A DNA stretch of 26,224 nucleotides, taken from a virus (lineage: Duplodnaviria > Caudoviricetes). The stretch is from IMG/VR virus record IMGVR_UViG_3300032319_000730, positions 1 through 26,224 of that record. One strand, 5' to 3'. Shown piece after piece: positions 10,002-23,057 of the stretch; within the stretch, counting starts at the first letter, position 1; each line of letters opens with the position of its first letter. The notes under the pieces are model-generated. The model was not told where the DNA came from and made no database searches. It worked only from the letters and a program-made list of their open reading frames with translations. The position numbers and the translations under genes were made by a program.

Positions 10002-10205
10002 AATAAAACCTACATCTCGCCGCTCACCGGCACCACCTACGAATACTCCTTCAGTGACGCTTGTCAATGGGAACGCTGGGATATCTACCAAATCGAAGGC
10101 GATTCTCGTAAGTGGGTGAATTTCACTTTGGCCGAGGAAAACATTCCCAACAAAGTGCGGCAGTTCGAAGTGCCTGAGCCCGATGTCAGCAGCCCGTGGG
10201 ACTGA
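9999..10205 (+). CDS. small hypothetical protein (single-gene cassette between two elements)
   Basis: Starts at the copy 4 ATG; its TGA ends at 10205, directly abutting copy 5 at 10206. Confidence 0.75.
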   Translation: MNKTYISPLTGTTYEYSFSDACQWERWDIYQIEGDSRKWVNFTLAEENIPNKVRQFEVPEPDVSSPWD

Positions 10206-10280
10206 GGGCGGTTTCCCGTACCTAACAGGGCGGTTCGCCCCCTTTACTTTTCGACCGAAAAGGGCTATGATTATATCATG
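10206..10280 (+). promoter_or_regulatory. 75-bp promoter/stem-loop element, copy 5
   Basis: GGGCGGTTTCCCGTACCTAACAGGGCGGTTCGCCCCC-TTTACT-17 nt-TATGAT-TATATC-ATG. Confidence 0.85.
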
Positions 10281-10889
10281 ATCAATACTGAACTCAAAAC
10301 CACTCTGTCCACCTCTTTTTTCCGGCGGTTTTGCCCGGACCCGACGGTGATGTACGACCTGGGCGACCTGTACGCTGAGCTCAACGCAAAGTTCTTCAAC
10401 GGGCAACTTCCCGTCTTGGCTGAAACGGTACGCACTGTGGACGGTGTGGAAAGAAAGACCTATCCTTCTCTGAAGTGGGACGGTCGGCTCGGTCGTCGCA
10501 CCCTTGGTGTTTACACCCCGGCTCGCAAACGTGGTCACGGTAAAATTCGCCTTGCCCGCCGAATTGCGGAGGATCCGGCAAAGACTCGCAGTGTTCTTCT
10601 TCACGAGATGCTTCACAAATTTCTTGACCTGAACAGCCTCGATGACGGAATTGCAGGCCATGGTCCGAATTTCATCTCGGTAGCAAAAGCGATCAACGAT
10701 CATTGTACCGAATGGGGCGTGAACTACCGTATCCACTTTTATGACGAGGAAATCACTCGTGAAGACCCTGTTTTCTACAGCGATGTCCTGAAGATGGAAA
10801 TTGACTGCCGCAAAGATCTCGACTTCGCGCGGAAAGTCCAATCCGTAATTCGCGCAGCATTCGACACCAACTACGAGTACCACCAGTGA
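10278..10889 (+). CDS. SprT-like zinc metalloprotease
   Basis: LNAKFFNGQLP, W.GRL.RRTLG, IRL, VLLHEMLH (HExxH), HGPNF. Confidence 0.85.
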   Translation: MINTELKTTLSTSFFRRFCPDPTVMYDLGDLYAELNAKFFNGQLPVLAETVRTVDGVERKTYPSLKWDGRLGRRTLGVYTPARKRGHGKIRLARRIAEDPAKTRSVLLHEMLHKFLDLNSLDDGIAGHGPNFISVAKAINDHCTEWGVNYRIHFYDEEITREDPVFYSDVLKMEIDCRKDLDFARKVQSVIRAAFDTNYEYHQ

Positions 10890-10991: not shown

Positions 10992-12365
10992 ATGGTCAGA
11001 ACTATTAAACTGGATCAGCTGCAGTCGTTTGACAAGAACAAGTTGGGTGACCGCCCGACTTTAAACGACTGCAAAGAACTGATCAATGAAGATTGCGACA
11101 TTTACGCACCGGACGGAACTTTGGTCGTTGCTTTTCGCAAAGCTGCCGTGAAGTCCGCGAGCGAGATTTCCCCCGGTAAGAAAGATTATGAGTATTGGCG
11201 CTGGGCCTGCCGCTCCCTTCTTTCCGACCAACGGGGCATGGCATCCGGGAAAGAAATCTACACAAACATTGAAATTCGTACGACTTACGGTCAGAACGAG
11301 TTTCTGAGCCTTGCAGCGAAAGGTAAAGTTTCCTCTCTGGAGGAGGCTCTTGAGATCATTGAGGCGGATTCGAGACCTTCCCGTACCACGTACTACGTCG
11401 GAAAGGCAGAAAAAGCTGGATACGTAGATTTACAGGAAGTCGAGAAGTGGGACTCCCTTGTTCGCAAGAAGAGCACACCATTTGAACTTCGCACGGAAGC
11501 GATTCTGAAGAGGAGAAGTGCTAAACTCGCGTGGTTTGATTATTGGCTTCGCAATGAATGGGCTACCGCAGAGGATAAAGTTTCTGCTGCGAAACAGTGT
11601 AAGAAAACGTTCGTAACGAACCAGCCACGGTCAAACAAGACCTACTCTGCCGTGCTTGGAACGATTGATCGCAGCGGACGGACGCCTTTTGGGCGACTGA
11701 CTTCCCCTACGATGGAACGCTACTCGGACTTTGAATCGTTCGCCCCGTTCTACAAAGAGGTTGACAGTCTTGTGAAGAGCCTGTTTCCGAGTGAGTGGGA
11801 CATTCTCTCCAACCGCTTCAATACGGTGAAAGACGAGCGTTACAACCTCTTCGGGACGATTTATACCTCGATCACTTGCAACTACAACTTCCCAACTTTC
11901 TACCATCTCGACGGAAACAACGCCAAGAACGCTGTGGCTGCCCTGGTCACGTTTGACAAAGGCGACTACGAGGGAATGGACTTTGTGATGCCAGAACTTG
12001 GCTTCGCTTTCCACATGCGCCACGGGGACATCTTGATCGGTGACAACCAAGGTTACGTTCATGGGCAAACTGAGTTCATCGCCAAAGACGACACTGCCGA
12101 AAACTTGACTCTTGTATTCTATCAACGGGACTCCATTACTCTCCTCGACGATCTAGATTGCGAAGCTTGTCGCAGAAGTTTCATGGCTTACGTTCTTGAA
12201 AACCACCCTGAGAGGAGCAATGGGGAAGCGAAGTGGACCGGTTCATTCCCGGGAATGTGGTCCAGCCCCGAATGGCTGACATACAAGAAATTACAAGATA
12301 AAGAACATTGCTCAAACACGAACATCAAAGGTCATCTCGACACATACAACACCCTTGAAAACTGA
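10992..12365 (+). CDS. TET/JBP-family Fe(II)-dependent dioxygenase (5-methylpyrimidine dioxygenase-like)
   Basis: YTSITCNYNFPTFY-H305-L-D307, G.YEG...V.PE.G, GDILIGD...H357-GQT, LTLVFYQR. N-terminal DCDIY.PDG.LVVAFRK also fits the family. Confidence 0.85.
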   Translation: MVRTIKLDQLQSFDKNKLGDRPTLNDCKELINEDCDIYAPDGTLVVAFRKAAVKSASEISPGKKDYEYWRWACRSLLSDQRGMASGKEIYTNIEIRTTYGQNEFLSLAAKGKVSSLEEALEIIEADSRPSRTTYYVGKAEKAGYVDLQEVEKWDSLVRKKSTPFELRTEAILKRRSAKLAWFDYWLRNEWATAEDKVSAAKQCKKTFVTNQPRSNKTYSAVLGTIDRSGRTPFGRLTSPTMERYSDFESFAPFYKEVDSLVKSLFPSEWDILSNRFNTVKDERYNLFGTIYTSITCNYNFPTFYHLDGNNAKNAVAALVTFDKGDYEGMDFVMPELGFAFHMRHGDILIGDNQGYVHGQTEFIAKDDTAENLTLVFYQRDSITLLDDLDCEACRRSFMAYVLENHPERSNGEAKWTGSFPGMWSSPEWLTYKKLQDKEHCSNTNIKGHLDTYNTLEN

Positions 12366-12366
12366 A

Positions 12367-13194
12367 ATGGATTATCAGATTGCCATCCCAACTTACGGAC
12401 GACCTGACGGAGTCAAAAAGCATGTTCTGAATTATCTTGAAAAAACCGACGTCGATCTGTCGCGAGTGACTTTGTTCGTCGCAAACAGCGAAGAGGAGGA
12501 AAAATATCAAAGTTCAAACCCCACATACAATATCGTTGTTGGTGAGAAGGGTTTGACAAATCAGCGCCACTTTATTTCTAACTATTACGACAAAGGAACA
12601 GCTGTTTTCTCATTTGACGACGATGTTAGCGCCGTTGAGGAACTTGAACTCCTGAAAGAGCTGTCTGGGACGCAAAAGCCGCTCGACCACCCCTGCCGCC
12701 TAAAGCCTGTAGAAGAACTCTCCGCGCTAATTGAGCGTGGATTTCGCATGAGCCAGCGTCGAGAGATCGGTTTGTTTGGTTTCTACGCTGTGCGAAATAA
12801 AGGGTTTCTTCACCCGAAAATCACGACTGGCCTGAAATTTATTATGGGCCATGCTTTTGGTTTCTATGCAGGCGACCCTGCTTTTGAACGGATTACAGAG
12901 TACAGCATGAAGGACGATTATTTCCTTTCGCTCTATCACAACGTTCACGGGAATGGTACTCTTCGGTTTGACAACATTTGCGTGAAAGCAAAACAGCACA
13001 CCGGAAGCGGTGGAACCTGCGAAGATCTCGAGAAGAAACTTCAGATCAACAATAGCACTGTTGAAAAAATTTGCGCAGAATTTCCAGAGCTTGCGAGCCC
13101 CAAATCTCGAAGAACTCAGGATGAATGGCTTTCGCGTTATTCTGAAATTCGCCTCAAGCCACAAACGAAAGAAACAATCGCACTCACTAACTGA
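12367..13194 (+). CDS. TET-associated GT-A glycosyltransferase (TAGT/GREB1-like)
   Basis: YQIAIPTYGRP, GLTNQRHFI, FDDD, LFGFY...LKFI.G, KDDY..SL...G..RF, GG; immediately downstream of the TET/JBP gene. Confidence 0.85.
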   Translation: MDYQIAIPTYGRPDGVKKHVLNYLEKTDVDLSRVTLFVANSEEEEKYQSSNPTYNIVVGEKGLTNQRHFISNYYDKGTAVFSFDDDVSAVEELELLKELSGTQKPLDHPCRLKPVEELSALIERGFRMSQRREIGLFGFYAVRNKGFLHPKITTGLKFIMGHAFGFYAGDPAFERITEYSMKDDYFLSLYHNVHGNGTLRFDNICVKAKQHTGSGGTCEDLEKKLQINNSTVEKICAEFPELASPKSRRTQDEWLSRYSEIRLKPQTKETIALTN

Positions 13195-13200
13195 ACGAAT

Positions 13201-13243
13201 GGGCGGTTTTCCGCCCTTTACGACTGACTTTGAAAACTATACT
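13201..13243 (+). promoter_or_regulatory. GGGCGG-TTTT-CCGCCC hairpin plus TTAC-N15-CTATAC promoter-like motif
   Basis: Inverted repeat 13201-13216; TTTACG 13217-13222; TATACT 13238-13243. Confidence 0.55.
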
Positions 13244-13264
13244 TAGAACAGCTTCTGACTTTTC

Positions 13265-13621
13265 ATGATTCCTGACCCTAAGAAAACTATTGTCTTTGAC
13301 GTTGACGACACGATTCTGAGTACGGTGAATCGCGATTACGAAAATTCGCGACCGAAGATGGAAGTTATCACGGGTATGCGAACAATGAAGGAGGCTGGCT
13401 GGACAATCATTCTTCATACGGCTCGTGGAATGGGTCGCTCAAACGGAAATATCGAGAGTGTTCGCAAAGAAGTTATCGAAGAACTCGAAAAGTTCTGCAC
13501 TAACTACGATGTGCCCTACGATGAGATTCAGATTGGAAAACCTTGGGCGGCGTACTACGTAGACGACAAAGCGATGACCCCTGAGCAATTTGCCGCAAAA
13601 TACACTCAAATCGCACAATGA
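13265..13621 (+). CDS. HAD phosphatase, EcbF/BcbF (capsule biosynthesis phosphatase) type
   Basis: IVFDVDDTI, G..IILHTARGM, VPYDEIQIGKPW..YYVDDKAM.PEQF. Confidence 0.88.
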   Translation: MIPDPKKTIVFDVDDTILSTVNRDYENSRPKMEVITGMRTMKEAGWTIILHTARGMGRSNGNIESVRKEVIEELEKFCTNYDVPYDEIQIGKPWAAYYVDDKAMTPEQFAAKYTQIAQ

Positions 13622-14331
13622 AGAACGCACTCATTCTTGCTGCCGGTCGTAGCACTCGGTTCGGCCGAAATAAACTTGAGGAGAAGTTTGACGGGATGTC
13701 ACTCCCTTACCTGGCAGCCAAGTTCGCTCTTGAAAACGGTGCGGAAAACATCTATCTGACGCTTTCACGTTCAGCGGTGAAAACCGATGGCGCACGAATC
13801 TACCACCCTGTTCTTGAAGAGGTATCAAAGATTTGTGACCCGATTGTGCGCTTCCAGAGTGAAGACACGTATGGCCCTGGGGCTGCCATTACAACGTGGG
13901 CCGGTGTGATTGATGGGCCGTTTACCGTATTGTTTGGGGACAACTATTATCAAGGGGTAATGCCAATTGCAGAACGAGTTCTGCTGAATTCAGATCTTGA
14001 CGATTCAGTTTATTTCACCTACCTGCACAAATCACTGAGTCCGCGGAACCTGCAGCTGGCTACCGTGATTGAAGATTATGTGGTTGAAAAACCCCATGGC
14101 CAACTGGAAGGTCGTTACTTCTGCGGCTTCGCGCGTTTTCCAGCCGGTTACTTGAACACGATTGGTGAGCTGCGTAAGAGTGATCGTGGCGAGGTTGAAA
14201 TCACGGATATGATCAACATGGCCAAGACGCGGGAGGCAATCTCGCTTAGTTCCTTTCGTGTAACTTGGGGCGACCTAACTTACGAGGCTGATTGCGCCCG
14301 GATTCGGGAGCTTATTCGTGAAGGGAAGTAG
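13618..14331 (+). CDS. sugar-1-phosphate nucleotidyltransferase (RmlA/RfbA-like)
   Basis: ALILAAGRSTRF..NK, Q....GPG, LFGDN, VVEKP, SDRGEVEITD, W.D motifs. Confidence 0.85.
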   Translation: MKNALILAAGRSTRFGRNKLEEKFDGMSLPYLAAKFALENGAENIYLTLSRSAVKTDGARIYHPVLEEVSKICDPIVRFQSEDTYGPGAAITTWAGVIDGPFTVLFGDNYYQGVMPIAERVLLNSDLDDSVYFTYLHKSLSPRNLQLATVIEDYVVEKPHGQLEGRYFCGFARFPAGYLNTIGELRKSDRGEVEITDMINMAKTREAISLSSFRVTWGDLTYEADCARIRELIREGK

Positions 14332-15064
14332 TGGTGCGACCCTCGATTTTTCCGGGGATTTTATAAGGAAGAAATGCAAAGACGCGAAGGAGCAGTGCGA
14401 ATGGTTTCGCATTGTTTCTCGGTATCCGTTGGAGCCAGGAATCCGTTTGCCTCGGACTATTCGTGCCTCGGACGAAGAGTATGACATTGAGTTTATTGAG
14501 GGTGTTTGTGGAACTCAGATTGAGTCTACAAGGTTGATTGACACATTGGTGGATCAGATACTTGTCTGGTCGCATATACCCGCTGTACGAACTTCTGACT
14601 GGAATTCGTATCTGGACCGTCTACACGTTGAGCATGTGGCGTTAACCGACAGCGACATAGTTCGACGGATTTTCGAATATATCGACGATATACCACCTCT
14701 GCCTTCCTCTCTATCGCATGGTGATCTGACTCTTGAAAACGTGATCGTGGAAAATAATGGGGGAATCGTTCTGATCGACCCAAATTTCAAGCAAAATTTG
14801 TTTCAGTCTTACGTGCTTGATCTTGGAAAGTTACTTCAGTCCGTGCACAGTGATTACCACAGGTTGTTTAACTCACATCCTGGGGGCGACCCTGCGCCTC
14901 TCTGCTCCCACCTTCGCCAAAGGCTGGGCAAACCCCTGTGGACCCAAGCCCTGGCAGCTGAGATGTCGCACGTGGTCCGCCTGCGCAAGTACCGACCCAG
15001 CGCCCAGCGCCCGGAGGTAGACCGCCTGCTGGCCCGTCTGCTGGCTGAGGCTCAGGGCGGTTAA
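14318..15064 (+). CDS. APH/choline-kinase-like phosphotransferase
   Basis: YDIEFIEG, Brenner motif HGDLTLENVI, VLIDPN, DLGKLLQS. The stop lies inside element copy 6. Confidence 0.85.
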   Translation: MKGSSGATLDFSGDFIRKKCKDAKEQCEWFRIVSRYPLEPGIRLPRTIRASDEEYDIEFIEGVCGTQIESTRLIDTLVDQILVWSHIPAVRTSDWNSYLDRLHVEHVALTDSDIVRRIFEYIDDIPPLPSSLSHGDLTLENVIVENNGGIVLIDPNFKQNLFQSYVLDLGKLLQSVHSDYHRLFNSHPGGDPAPLCSHLRQRLGKPLWTQALAAEMSHVVRLRKYRPSAQRPEVDRLLARLLAEAQGG

Positions 15065-15129
15065 CCGTACCTTTTAGGGCGGTTCGCCCCCTTTACTTTC
15101 CGGTCAAAATGAGCCATAATAAAGTCATG
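15055..15129 (+). promoter_or_regulatory. 75-bp promoter/stem-loop element, copy 6
   Basis: GGGCGGTTAACCGTACCTTTTAGGGCGGTTCGCCCCC-TTTACT-17 nt-CATAAT-AAAGTC-ATG. Confidence 0.85.
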
Positions 15130-15444
15130 AATCAAAGCTACTCCACCCTCTCCGCCACCGACCGCTGCCTGGTCGCCGTTCCTTCCCACCCCTGGACCGT
15201 GAACGTTACCCGCCACGGCGAAGACCTCGCTGTAGATAACGTCCTCGAAGCCGAAGTGACGAACTTTCACGGTGCGACCAAGATGTACGCCACCAAAGTT
15301 GGAAACGACTGCTACGATGTTGTATTTACCAAGTTTGCCCAAATTTACGGCAAACTTCGTGAAACTGCCACAGTTGAGTTCACTACCACTCGTAGCTGGA
15401 TCGATCAGTGGATCGAGATGGCTTACGCCTCCTACTGCGTTTGA
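15127..15444 (+). CDS. hypothetical protein
   Basis: Starts at the element ATG: MNQSYSTLSATDRCLVAVPSHPW... Confidence 0.72.
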   Translation: MNQSYSTLSATDRCLVAVPSHPWTVNVTRHGEDLAVDNVLEAEVTNFHGATKMYATKVGNDCYDVVFTKFAQIYGKLRETATVEFTTTRSWIDQWIEMAYASYCV

Positions 15445-20273: not shown

Positions 20274-23057
20274 ATGAAAAACTCAACGTCCGTGAAAAAA
20301 ACACAACTTGGATACCCCGTCTTGTCCGACGACCTGCACGAAAAGATTTTCGGTGCACAAAAACCAAAAGAAATGTCTCGGCAAGCACTTCAGAAGGCTG
20401 AGAGCCTTCTTAAAGAATTCAATATTACCACCCCTGTTGATTACCCTGCCGGTCTATACGACGGCCCACTGCCCCTACCAGACCTGAAAGCCAGGTCGTT
20501 GAACAACCATTTCAACAAGATCGCACAAGAGCAAGTTGATCGCTATAAGATTCTGGGAAACAAGTTTTCCCAGTGCGAACTTCCTCCTCTTCCGCCAGCT
20601 GAACAGTTTCGGTTTGAAGCAGGCTGGACTCGTTATGAACTGGTGGAAGGCGAGTGGCAAATCACGAAAGTAGAGTTTCCTCAAGAAGAAGCCTTCACTT
20701 TTGATACGGAAACCTACGTTCACGGCGGTTCCTTCCCGATCATCGGAACAGCACTCAGCGAGAAAGCAGCCTATGTTTGGCTGGCTGCTGAGCTAATTGA
20801 TCCTACAATTCCCGAGGACGAGTGGGACCAGCATGAGCTGATACCGATCGGGACCAACCGTTTTATCCCAGGTCACAATATTAGCTACGACCGAGTTCGT
20901 GCTCGTGAGGGTTACAACCTTGACAGAACTGAGCCAGAGAATTTCTATTTTGATACACTATCCGCTCACATTGGTGTGTCTGGCCTTGCTAGCGGCCAAC
21001 GTTGGCTTTACGTTCTGGCAGGTAAAGATCCAGATGACCTCACAGCAGAAGAAAAGCGAAAGCTAAGGTACGCACCAAAGTGGCTTGACCAAGGTTCCAC
21101 TAACAGTCTTGTGCAGTGCTACAACTTTCATGTGGCGGCTGTGCGAAAATACTTCGGCGAGAATGTGAAAGAGTTGGGTGCGGATGACAAGAAAGTTCGT
21201 AACATCTTCGTCGATGCAACCAGTCTGACCCAAATTCGTCAAGTTCTGACTTCGGCGCTTGATTACGCTCTGAAAGATGCTTTCTACACTGCCGAGTTAT
21301 TTCAAGCCCTATGGCCAAAGTACCTGGACAGCACTCCTTCTCTGGTCGCTCTCTGTGGGCATTACCATCTAAATGGTTCGATAGTTCCACTTGTTGAAAA
21401 CTGGTCGGAGTGGATTGAGAACGTCGAGGTCGTTTACAAGAAATACAACGAAGAGATGACTCAGATTTGCAAAGATCTGGTTTGGAAAACGTACGAAGAG
21501 TGGCGCATTCTTTATCTCAACGACCCCGAGAAAGCTGAGAGGTGGACTCAACGCGACCCCTGGATTTCTCAACTCGACTGGGAAGTGAAAGCGACGAAAG
21601 GTAAGTACGCACACATTCCTACGTGGGTTCGTCCGTTCATTAAGGATGAAAATCAGCACATCGGCGTTAAGTCTAACCTTGCCCACTTGATGCTGAAACT
21701 CAAGTATGAAGGCACTCCGATGGTGCTCACAAAAACCAACGGCTGGTGTTACCACGACTCTGATTCAAACCTTGTTAAGATTCCGCACCCGAAAGGGAAT
21801 GGCGACAATGTTGGCGGTGTGCTGAGCAAGGATTTCGTCGAAGATATGGCTGTGGGTCGGTTGAGTAGCGATCTCCCTGAGGCGAAACGGGCACTGGAAA
21901 TTGCCAATGCTGTGTCCTACTGGACTTCCGTGCGCAAACGTGTGATGGATCGCATTGTTATGGGGGTGCAAAACCCTTATGGCGAAAACGCTCTCGTTAC
22001 TTTGCCGGAGATTCTGTGCCACGGCACCGTTACTCGGCGAACGGTAGAATCGCTCATGGTTACCATGTGCTCTACCAAGAATTGGCGTATCGGAACTGAA
22101 CTGAAAACCCGAGTGAAAGCACCGGATGGGTGGAAGATTGTCGGTGCCGACTTTGACGGTCAAGAAATGCAGATCGCCTCGATCTACAGCGACAAGTGGG
22201 AAGGCGGCCACGTCGGTTGTTCACCCTTTGGCTACAACGTCCTGAGTGGCTCGAAAGAGGCAGGCACGGACCCACACAGCGCCCTCGCCAAGCTGGCTGG
22301 AGTGGATCGGGACACGGCTAAGATCGCCGGTTTCGCCGTTCTATACGGGGCTGGTGTCCGTGCTGTGCAGACCTACATTCGCCGCAAGTACCCTGAAAAG
22401 TCGCCTACAGAGGTGAAGAACTTTGCGTACCGAATTCTAGAGGGCAAGAAGGGCAAGCAGCGGTCAGGCTTGTATGAAGGTGGCTCGGATTCCGGTTGTT
22501 TCAACTATATGGAGGAAATTGCGATGAGAACCCGCGTCCCGCAACTTCCTTGCCTGGGGACAAAGATCTCGACCGCGATGCGACCCTCGGCTGTGGGGAA
22601 CGATTTCAAAACTGGGCGGGTGAATTGGACGATCCAATCCTCGGGTGCGGAGATTCTTTCGATCTTCCTAACTTCGGTTCACTGGCTTGCCGCCGAGTAC
22701 AAGATCCCGGCCCGATTCATTTTGAGCATCCATGACGAGATCTGGTTTATGACTCCAGATCGTTACGCGGAGCAGTTTGCTGTTCTGTTCCAAATCGCTC
22801 ACATGTACACCTGGTCGCTGTTTCAATCTTCGGTGGACATTCCAGAATTGCCCCTGTCTCGTGCCTATTTCTCGAGCGTGGCGATTGATACTCGCATTCG
22901 CAAATCTCCGAAAGAAAGAACTGTTACACCGTCGAATCCTGGTGGTGACAAAGAACCTGGTGGGACTGAGTACTCGATGCAGGAACTCTCCGAAATCGGT
23001 GCAATCGACAAACTGACCACCCGTTACAACGCTATTCAAAAAGGTTTGATCAAATGA
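20274..23057 (+). CDS. family A DNA polymerase, mitochondrial Pol gamma (POLG/MIP1)-like
   Basis: Exo motifs FDTE, GHNISYDR, YALKD; pol motifs GADFDGQE, R..AKIAGFAVLYGAG, SIHDEI; gamma-specific blocks LS..LHEKIFG, GWTRY, DPWISQLDW, KIPHPKGNGDNVG, GTVTRRTVE, RVNWTIQSSG, TPSNP. Confidence 0.95.
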   Translation: MKNSTSVKKTQLGYPVLSDDLHEKIFGAQKPKEMSRQALQKAESLLKEFNITTPVDYPAGLYDGPLPLPDLKARSLNNHFNKIAQEQVDRYKILGNKFSQCELPPLPPAEQFRFEAGWTRYELVEGEWQITKVEFPQEEAFTFDTETYVHGGSFPIIGTALSEKAAYVWLAAELIDPTIPEDEWDQHELIPIGTNRFIPGHNISYDRVRAREGYNLDRTEPENFYFDTLSAHIGVSGLASGQRWLYVLAGKDPDDLTAEEKRKLRYAPKWLDQGSTNSLVQCYNFHVAAVRKYFGENVKELGADDKKVRNIFVDATSLTQIRQVLTSALDYALKDAFYTAELFQALWPKYLDSTPSLVALCGHYHLNGSIVPLVENWSEWIENVEVVYKKYNEEMTQICKDLVWKTYEEWRILYLNDPEKAERWTQRDPWISQLDWEVKATKGKYAHIPTWVRPFIKDENQHIGVKSNLAHLMLKLKYEGTPMVLTKTNGWCYHDSDSNLVKIPHPKGNGDNVGGVLSKDFVEDMAVGRLSSDLPEAKRALEIANAVSYWTSVRKRVMDRIVMGVQNPYGENALVTLPEILCHGTVTRRTVESLMVTMCSTKNWRIGTELKTRVKAPDGWKIVGADFDGQEMQIASIYSDKWEGGHVGCSPFGYNVLSGSKEAGTDPHSALAKLAGVDRDTAKIAGFAVLYGAGVRAVQTYIRRKYPEKSPTEVKNFAYRILEGKKGKQRSGLYEGGSDSGCFNYMEEIAMRTRVPQLPCLGTKISTAMRPSAVGNDFKTGRVNWTIQSSGAEILSIFLTSVHWLAAEYKIPARFILSIHDEIWFMTPDRYAEQFAVLFQIAHMYTWSLFQSSVDIPELPLSRAYFSSVAIDTRIRKSPKERTVTPSNPGGDKEPGGTEYSMQELSEIGAIDKLTTRYNAIQKGLIK

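Follow-up and report, generated by a model that had tools for sequence, protein, structure and literature searches.

A clade of cyanophage TET/JBP-family proteins without the arginine that binds the C5 carboxylate of 2-oxoglutarate

A TET/JBP-family protein of a cyanophage belongs to a clade whose members have all lost the arginine that in this family holds the C5 carboxylate of 2-oxoglutarate (2OG). The loss is real, inherited and clade-wide. What is new, as judged from alignments, is that the co-substrate site of a TET/JBP enzyme appears to have been rebuilt across a clade. The C5-carboxylate arginine is currently taken as a hallmark that phage and eukaryotic TET/JBP enzymes strictly keep, and the only characterized exception to 2OG use found in the literature searched is CMD1. 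We lean slightly toward the view that the whole clade modifies DNA without 2OG, for example on pyruvate or glyoxylate. The Arg-less proteins diverge to as little as 37% identity with the protein described here and are still wired to hydroxymethyl-tailoring genes; they constitute a clean comparative experiment for which the cultured, Arg-keeping Synechococcus phage S-CBWM1 provides the control.

The protein and its genomic setting

The DNA analyzed (the window) is the whole 26,224-nucleotide stretch of IMG/VR record IMGVR_UViG_3300032319_000730. It is co-linear with S-CBWM1 from topoisomerase through A-family polymerase to tail genes, and a close relative (G002) carries a photosynthetic reaction-center gene; the virus is thus placed as a cyanomyophage of the S-CBWM1 group. 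Its A-family DNA polymerase (20274-23057), 57% identical to that of S-CBWM1, has a mitochondrial-type exonuclease domain. Freshwater metagenomes are the best independent datasets with the window sequence, no RNA dataset is among the listed holders, and none of the 155 candidate stretches in genome_contigs gave a relative. An 88-nt repeat, in which a stem-loop precedes promoter-like sequence and a start codon, occurs six times in the window (at 157, 2450, 6719, 9926, 10205 and 15054), and two of these copies flank the sprT-TET-sugar block (Table 1).

Table 1. Features of the TET/JBP gene and its neighbors in the window
Feature	Position	Strand	Basis or remark
88-nt repeat copy at the head of the sprT-TET block	10205..10292	+	further copy 15054-15141, after the kinase
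SprT-like gene, upstream of TET	10278..10889	+	Pfam, neighborhoods; S-CBWM1 and other relatives carry one upstream too
TET/JBP-family dioxygenase gene (457 aa; long form, with an insertion inside and an extension at the C terminus)	10992..12365	+	ORF, Pfam Tet_JBP, hhalign vs canonical phage TETs
R81 in D-Q-R-G-x-A-x-G, retained	11232..11234	+	R in 124/127 clade rows, 3 gaps
~105-residue insertion (residues ~91-196) relative to short phage TETs	11262..11579	+	boundaries approximate
T295, N297, H305-x-D307 (iron), N310 (base edge; TET2 N1387 position)	11874..11921	+	each 127/127
D330-F331	11979..11984	+	[ED]-F in Arg-less clade, mostly Y-L in Arg-keeping relatives
H357 (iron) and Q359 (canonical N)	12060..12068	+	H 127/127
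Last core strand N371-L-T373-L-V375-F-Y377-Q-R379	12102..12128	+	Arg and Ser of the C5-carboxylate site replaced; V, Y and R/K, which bind the base, kept
C-terminal extension; C390-x-x-C393 and C440 conserved	12147..12362	+	common to Arg-keeping sisters
TET-associated GT-A glycosyltransferase (TAGT), DDD and KDDY motifs	12367..13194	+	S-CBWM1 gene 64% identical
HAD phosphatase, capsule-biosynthesis phosphatase-like	13265..13621	+	match below cut-off
Sugar-1-phosphate nucleotidyltransferase-like gene	13618..14331	+	matches below curated cut-offs
APH-fold kinase	14318..15064	+	Pfam APH over cut-off

The window protein is a TET/JBP family member: it matches Pfam Tet_JBP (PF12851) at E 4.7e-18, with 65.4 bits against a curated cut-off of 34.9, and aligns by hhalign with 78 canonical phage TETs at probability 100, gap-free from H357 to R379. 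A PDB search with the single sequence gave no matches and profiles were required; an ESM Atlas feature search led to Tet_JBP clusters and one unannotated eukaryotic set. Profile alignments set the last core strand in register with RISLVFYQH of human TET2, with N371 in the place of the canonical arginine, just as the first-pass annotation of this DNA had proposed. The iron triad H305-x-D307 and H357, which it had called intact, is present in all 127 clade rows, and the residues that it had located in 11904..12128 all lie where it put them, with codons at 11904 (H305), 11910 (D307), 12060 (H357), 12102 (N371) and 12126 (R379); those of T373 and Y377 were likewise confirmed. By this register N371 is equivalent to TET2 R1896, T373 to S1898, V375 to V1900, Y377 to Y1902 and R379 to H1904. 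S1898 and H1881 are presumably the right numbers, counted in part from cited residues. R1896, V1900, Y1902 and H1904 are numbered as in the available text of PMC7854593 and PMC8256090. Human TET2, Naegleria TET1 and trypanosome JBP1 share with the Arg-less clade the fold family and the register of catalytic and base-binding residues; they differ in using R1896, R289 and R255, respectively, for 2OG, where the clade has no arginine. At the other end of the site, R81 aligns with the invariant R78 of the canonical phage TET alignment and is the probable equivalent of TET2 R1261, which serves the C1 carboxylate of the 2-oxo acid and base stacking.

In its working the window protein would be most like the phage T-dioxygenases of 5mYOX clades C1 and C2 (5mYOX89, 97 and 176; PMC13229309, PMC8256090, as far as their accessible parts go). 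Common to both are the N-terminal RG-x-A-x-G arginine, the TxTxN strand, HxD...H, the terminal V-x-Y-x-R, and thymine-tailoring neighbors (glycosyltransferases, P-loop kinases, GATases and amino acid:DNA transferases, ADDTs) with no adjacent C5-methyltransferase, as far as the partial contigs extend. The tested enzymes carry a "variable insertion" (PMC13229309, in part), and the insertion of the window TET sits at that position. The differences are in length (~210-335 aa, with the C5 arginine, as against 457 aa without the R/S/N site), in the asparagine at position 310, and in the adjacent ParB-like gene of the ParB-dependent subclass, for which there was no match among the scanned window and neighbor proteins.

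Among cultured phages in the collection, the closest relative (36% identity) is S-CBWM1 HOU61_gp009 (YP_009816366.1, "putative SNF2 DNA repair protein"), which shares the long architecture, N310, the cysteine motifs and the SprT-TET-TAGT-HAD-nucleotidyltransferase-kinase block but keeps H-A-N and E-R-V-S and belongs to the group that is sister to the Arg-less clade. The TET/JBP genes of S-CBWM1, Cr30 and DLP6 (L001-L003) are all misannotated as "SNF2 DNA repair protein". C390, C393 and C440 are cysteine in 124, 126 and 124 of the 127 clade rows (window 12159-12311) and may form a metal site.

The Arg-less lineage and its C5-carboxylate site

Among the 120 matches listed of 149 homologues, position 371 is occupied by N (62), S (47), C (7) or A (4) and never by R; outside the Arg-less clade, arginine is found there in 128 of 129 full rows. 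The alignment pooled the 120 listed homologues, the best 150 of 812 representatives and ten locus proteins, leaving out proteins of <250 aa or >=700 aa, P0001 and P0260 (a TET relative in which a large intein-like insert adjoins the first iron histidine). Of its 260 rows 256 have a filled core, 128 with arginine and 128 without. One of the latter, P0221 (R to Q, with N and S kept), is an unrelated single change and was dropped, so that clade counts refer to 127 Arg-less rows, which are clusters with their kin and should not be counted as separate events. One-clade status was read from branch support in a midpoint-rooted tree of 72 rows chosen by hand, from which the insertion had been removed: all 35 Arg-less rows group on a single branch (100/96) that sits inside the Arg-keeping relatives and has the Arg-keeping proteins of S-CBWM1, P0125 and L041 as its neighbors (97/91).

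The Arg-less TET genes are under purifying selection. For eight pairs, dN/dS is 0.04-0.16 over the whole gene and 0-0.12 over the core, several dS values being near saturation. Twenty clade positions are fully invariant, and seven of these (295, 297, 305, 307, 310, 357 and 375) are iron ligands or second-shell residues. Contigs from 4 runs span the TET gene, and the near-identical (99%) loci L094 and L095 also carry ENLTLVFYQR. Sequencing error was considered as the source of N371 and ruled out by the homologues that also lack the arginine; a private change or a dead allele, which the first-pass annotation had left open beside it, is refuted by the homologues, the clade and the dN/dS values together. 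What is inherited is the loss of arginine; asparagine itself is not conserved, the position being N, S, C or A. The window TET is 65% identical to those of G001 and G003, as against 83-88% for the polymerase and 84-98% for the TAGT, HAD, nucleotidyltransferase and kinase, which suggests exchange of the TET gene, or its faster change, relative to its neighbors (window 10992-15064).

The change extends over the whole C5-carboxylate site and the whole clade, and is thus wider than the single arginine first remarked on. Positions 359/371/373 are N-R-S/T in 120 of 128 Arg-keeping rows, as against MSW, MNM, QNT, IST and other combinations in 127 of 127 clade rows. R371, N359 and S373 are each absent from all 127: N359, found in 122 of the 128 Arg-keeping rows, has given way to M, Q or I, and S373 (100 of 128) to T, M, W, V or I, with W373 in 33 clade rows. 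F331 stands in place of the canonical L331 in 126 of 127 clade rows (19 of 128 Arg-keeping rows), [ED]330-F331 occurs in 123 of 127 (5 of 128) and V302 in 86 of 127 (1 of 128). The summed side-chain volume at 359, 373 and 331 is 450-581 cubic angstroms in the clade and 316-446 in Arg-keeping proteins, two ranges that do not overlap. The window subclade has Q359, N371 and T373, all polar; in 68 of the 127 rows, those of the MSW, MCM and MNM subclades, the distal site retains almost no polar group.

Whether another basic residue takes over at the C5-carboxylate site, a check that the first-pass annotation had put forward, was followed up by alignment, which points to no conserved K or R among 20 positions alternating along the barrel (at position 361 two of 127 rows have one, at the other 19 none do). 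The conserved basic gains, K138, K178, K204, R243 and R275, fall in the insertion and in helices, outside the barrel. V375, T295 and Y/F377 are each kept in 127 of 127 clade rows, as is R/K379 in the clade; the C1/C2, iron-chelating end of the 2-oxo-acid site thus appears intact and the C5 end filled in. Pocket membership of positions 331, 359 and 373 is taken from alignment to TET2 and CMD1.

The arginine is retained in all phage TETs of PMC8256090, according to the accessible text of that paper, and, read by eye, in 49 of 49 wild-type tested enzymes (Dataset S11 of PMC13229309, available in part). JBP1 R255A fails to restore base J in vivo (PMC1874643, in part); as this single substitution of Ala for Arg is enough to inactivate JBP1, an Arg-less enzyme that works must solve the problem in another way. 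The literature search, PMC8256090 and preprint supplements lying outside its scope, found no description of an Arg-less phage TET clade, and the clade motifs and six related-locus sample numbers were not found in the 12 supplements of PMC13229309, in which alignments are pictures.

Tailoring modules beside the Arg-less genes

With near-identical copies merged, there are 34 Arg-less loci, and in 30 of them a base-tailoring gene lies downstream: TAGT in 17, ADDT in 13, both in 2, P-loop kinase 3 only in 1 and a GATase-amidoligase only in 1 (at a contig end). The other four have <=763 bp of downstream sequence. TAGT and ADDT modules also stand beside Arg-keeping TETs, and are better conserved between the two kinds of locus than the TETs themselves. 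The TAGT of S-CBWM1 is 64% identical to that of the window, against 36% for the TET, and between L041 and L103 the ADDT and amidoligase are 59% and 62% identical, against 36% for the TET. The kinase/transferase route begins at 5-hydroxymethyluracil (5hmU) in DNA (PMC13458397, in part), and in a phage cluster that was put to the test the heptose used by a glycosyltransferase came from HAD/APH/CTP-transferase genes (10.1101/2023.12.21.572611, in part). By analogy, the handle made by the Arg-less TETs is most likely 5hmU; from the same precedents and the shared modules, it is most likely the glycosyltransferase, not the oxygenase, that the sugar genes supply. A co-substrate supplied by the adjacent sugar-phosphate enzymes had been suggested for the window protein. 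That suggestion has little support: S-CBWM1, which keeps R-x-S, has the same TAGT-HAD-nucleotidyltransferase-kinase block (41-64% identical), and most Arg-less loci carry other modules.

In four Arg-less contigs of 68-136 kb, for which CheckV gives 31-61% completeness, there is one TET each and neither a ThyA-type enzyme nor a C5-methyltransferase; ThyX is found in two. An outside source of 5hmU is made less likely by this, an argument weakened by the partial state of the contigs. Neither the window nor any of 5 related (partial) contigs gave a C5-methyltransferase; no hydroxymethylase turned up among 103 of the 126 larger ORFs of G002, and in the genomes compared no special co-substrate gene travels with the Arg-less clade. 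SpeD (AdoMet decarboxylase), matched in 5 of 21 records and present in 4 of 4 Arg-less genomes, was considered as a hint of a methionine-derived 2-oxo acid and dropped because the Arg-keeping G005 carries it too.

Co-substrate and chemistry

The inherited loss of the arginine, together with a concerted rebuilding of the C5 site without a compensating basic residue in the alignment, makes a different co-substrate a serious reading; to this extent the initial proposal of a changed co-substrate or chemistry stands. Its sugar-enzyme product and its CMD1 chemistry are weakly supported. Our best explanation, tentative and rated a little short of an even chance, is that these proteins are active thymine hydroxylases that make 5hmU with a shorter or uncharged-tail co-substrate in place of 2OG. 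The enzyme of the S-CBWM1-like cyanophages would act post-replicatively on thymine flipped from phage DNA by Y377, R379, N310 and R81; O2 would be activated at the H305/D307/H357 iron and 5hmU written, which the adjacent GT-A enzyme would glycosylate with a sugar from the kinase/HAD/nucleotidyltransferase trio. The tailoring of 5hmU in relatives would fall instead to a P-loop kinase and an amino acid:DNA transferase. The holders of the C5 carboxylate, R371, S373 and N359, would have been lost together in the ancestor of the clade and exchanged for bulkier, mostly apolar side chains; their replacement next to an unchanged C1/C2 end makes a 2-oxo acid with a shorter or uncharged tail, or else a small reductant comparable to it, the most likely co-substrate. 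Candidates picked by size and polarity are pyruvate, glyoxylate, 2-oxobutyrate, hydroxypyruvate and 4-methylthio-2-oxobutyrate; no precedent for a pyruvate-driven enzyme of the TET/JBP fold was found in the literature. The data establish the sequence changes, their inheritance throughout the clade, the purifying selection and the gene context; that the enzyme is active, that it targets thymine and makes 5hmU, how its pocket is shaped and which co-substrate it takes are what we infer.

If this is true, the TET/JBP fold can change its co-substrate and keep its product, and the clade would supply a DNA oxidase that may resist 2OG competitors. Phage DNA protection would also be freed from the tightly regulated 2OG pool of the host, although this as a motive is speculation.

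The chief competing account retains 2OG: the same enzyme would make the same 5hmU with 2OG held weakly or differently, by way of the iron, R81 and polar side chains or water, and with a high Km. We consider it unlikely, if by no means negligible. The unchanged C1-side residues speak for it, as does the interchangeability of the downstream modules with those of canonical enzymes, and the polar Q359/N371/T373 of the window subclade could hydrogen-bond a carboxylate. TET2 R1896 mutants reportedly show a raised Km instead of loss of activity, a result that the literature search did not find. Yet the 68 rows of the MSW, MCM and MNM subclades have nearly no polar group to offer, and the incoming side chains are larger, not smaller; the failure of JBP1 R255A and the arginine of all 49 tested phage enzymes also weigh against it (PMC1874643 and PMC13229309, each in part). 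That the replacements differ between subclades also fits relaxed constraint, and with it an inactive or nearly inactive protein that flips bases or serves as a scaffold for the tailoring enzymes, the hydroxymethyl base coming by another route. 5hmU from elsewhere is possible, since the contigs searched are 31-61% complete; equivalent loss of the arginine kills JBP1, the distal pocket positions vary freely, and the TET diverges more than its neighbors. Such a role is nevertheless improbable for a protein with iron ligands and second-shell residues so prominent among its invariant positions and a core under stronger selection than the whole gene, in viruses where no second TET or ThyA-like gene turned up in four partial genomes and no hydroxymethylase among the G002 ORFs covered.

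Comparison with Chlamydomonas CMD1 (PDB 7CY4-7CY8) bears on a more radical chemistry, in which ascorbate or a sugar acid would be cleaved and a fragment joined to the base, giving a hydroxylated adduct to be decorated downstream. In the parts of PMC7854593 available, CMD1 requires R244, H249, T337, W358 and T399 for its use of vitamin C, which V342 and F371 also touch; it acts on 5mC and not on T. CMD1 had been cited as a TET homologue without the normal 2OG site. The site is indeed unusable and has no effective basic residue, but not through loss of the arginine: Arg410 is kept, pointing away, and Trp358, a leucine in the window protein, fills the site (PMC7854593, in part). By alignment, with CMD1 numbering counted from H345, T337, W358 and T399 map to N297, L318 and 359 (M/Q/I), and R244 and H249 would map to R81 and G86. 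One of the five essential residues has an identical counterpart on this (partly inferred) mapping, and W318, H86, T297 and S375 (CMD1 S414) each occur in 0 of 127 clade rows. Convergence is seen at the hydrophobic contacts: V302 and [ED]330-F331, strongly enriched in the clade, match V342 and E370-F371 (the window protein itself has T302 and F331), R379 corresponds to R418, the terminal arginine at the base edge, and W373 could fill the arginine site as W358 does. Cyanobacteria contain little ascorbate, which counts against a CMD1-like reaction, as do the absence of a C5-methyltransferase from the five related contigs and the sharing of tailoring modules with Arg-keeping enzymes. A CMD1-like chemistry, raised when the sequence was first annotated, is therefore a minority reading with quite a low probability. 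Just as low is the share that, within a 2OG-independent clade, we allot to its extreme form, in which a fragment of the co-substrate is joined to thymine to yield a new base.

Least probable, in our estimate, is an active oxygenase with another target: 5mC from a host or distant methyltransferase, another base, or RNA. N310 is the residue that prompts this thought and also tells against a thymine target: it matches TET2 N1387 and not the aspartate of JBP and the tested phage T-dioxygenases, although the Arg-keeping sisters share the asparagine. Asn is able to bond to thymine O4 (PMC11804724, in part), and the tested T-dioxygenases oxidize 5mC as well (PMC13229309, in part). Against another target stand the missing C5-methyltransferase in the window and the five related contigs, the terminal Y-x-R, as in T-dioxygenases, and the kinase/ADDT modules, which are thymine-pathway genes (PMC13229309, PMC13458397, both in part).

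The neighborhoods also predict sugar- and inositol-linked thymine hypermodifications, undescribed so far, in freshwater cyanophages. In L009 (3887-8121), L013, L016/L017, L022, L032 and L104 the Arg-less TET is followed by ADDT, inositol-1-phosphate synthase and a small HAD-like gene, with P-loop kinase 3 where the contig is long enough and an extra inositol-dehydrogenase-like gene in L022; an inositol-linked thymine is predicted from loci of this type, and the literature search found no description of such a base. At L020 (1813-3183) the Arg-less TET is followed by P-loop kinase 3 and a 215-aa protein, with neither ADDT nor TAGT within the locus. L041/L042 (8508-11431) has two tandem Arg-keeping long TETs, followed by a cluster of ATP-grasp, GATase, amidoligase, ADDT and GT4 genes.
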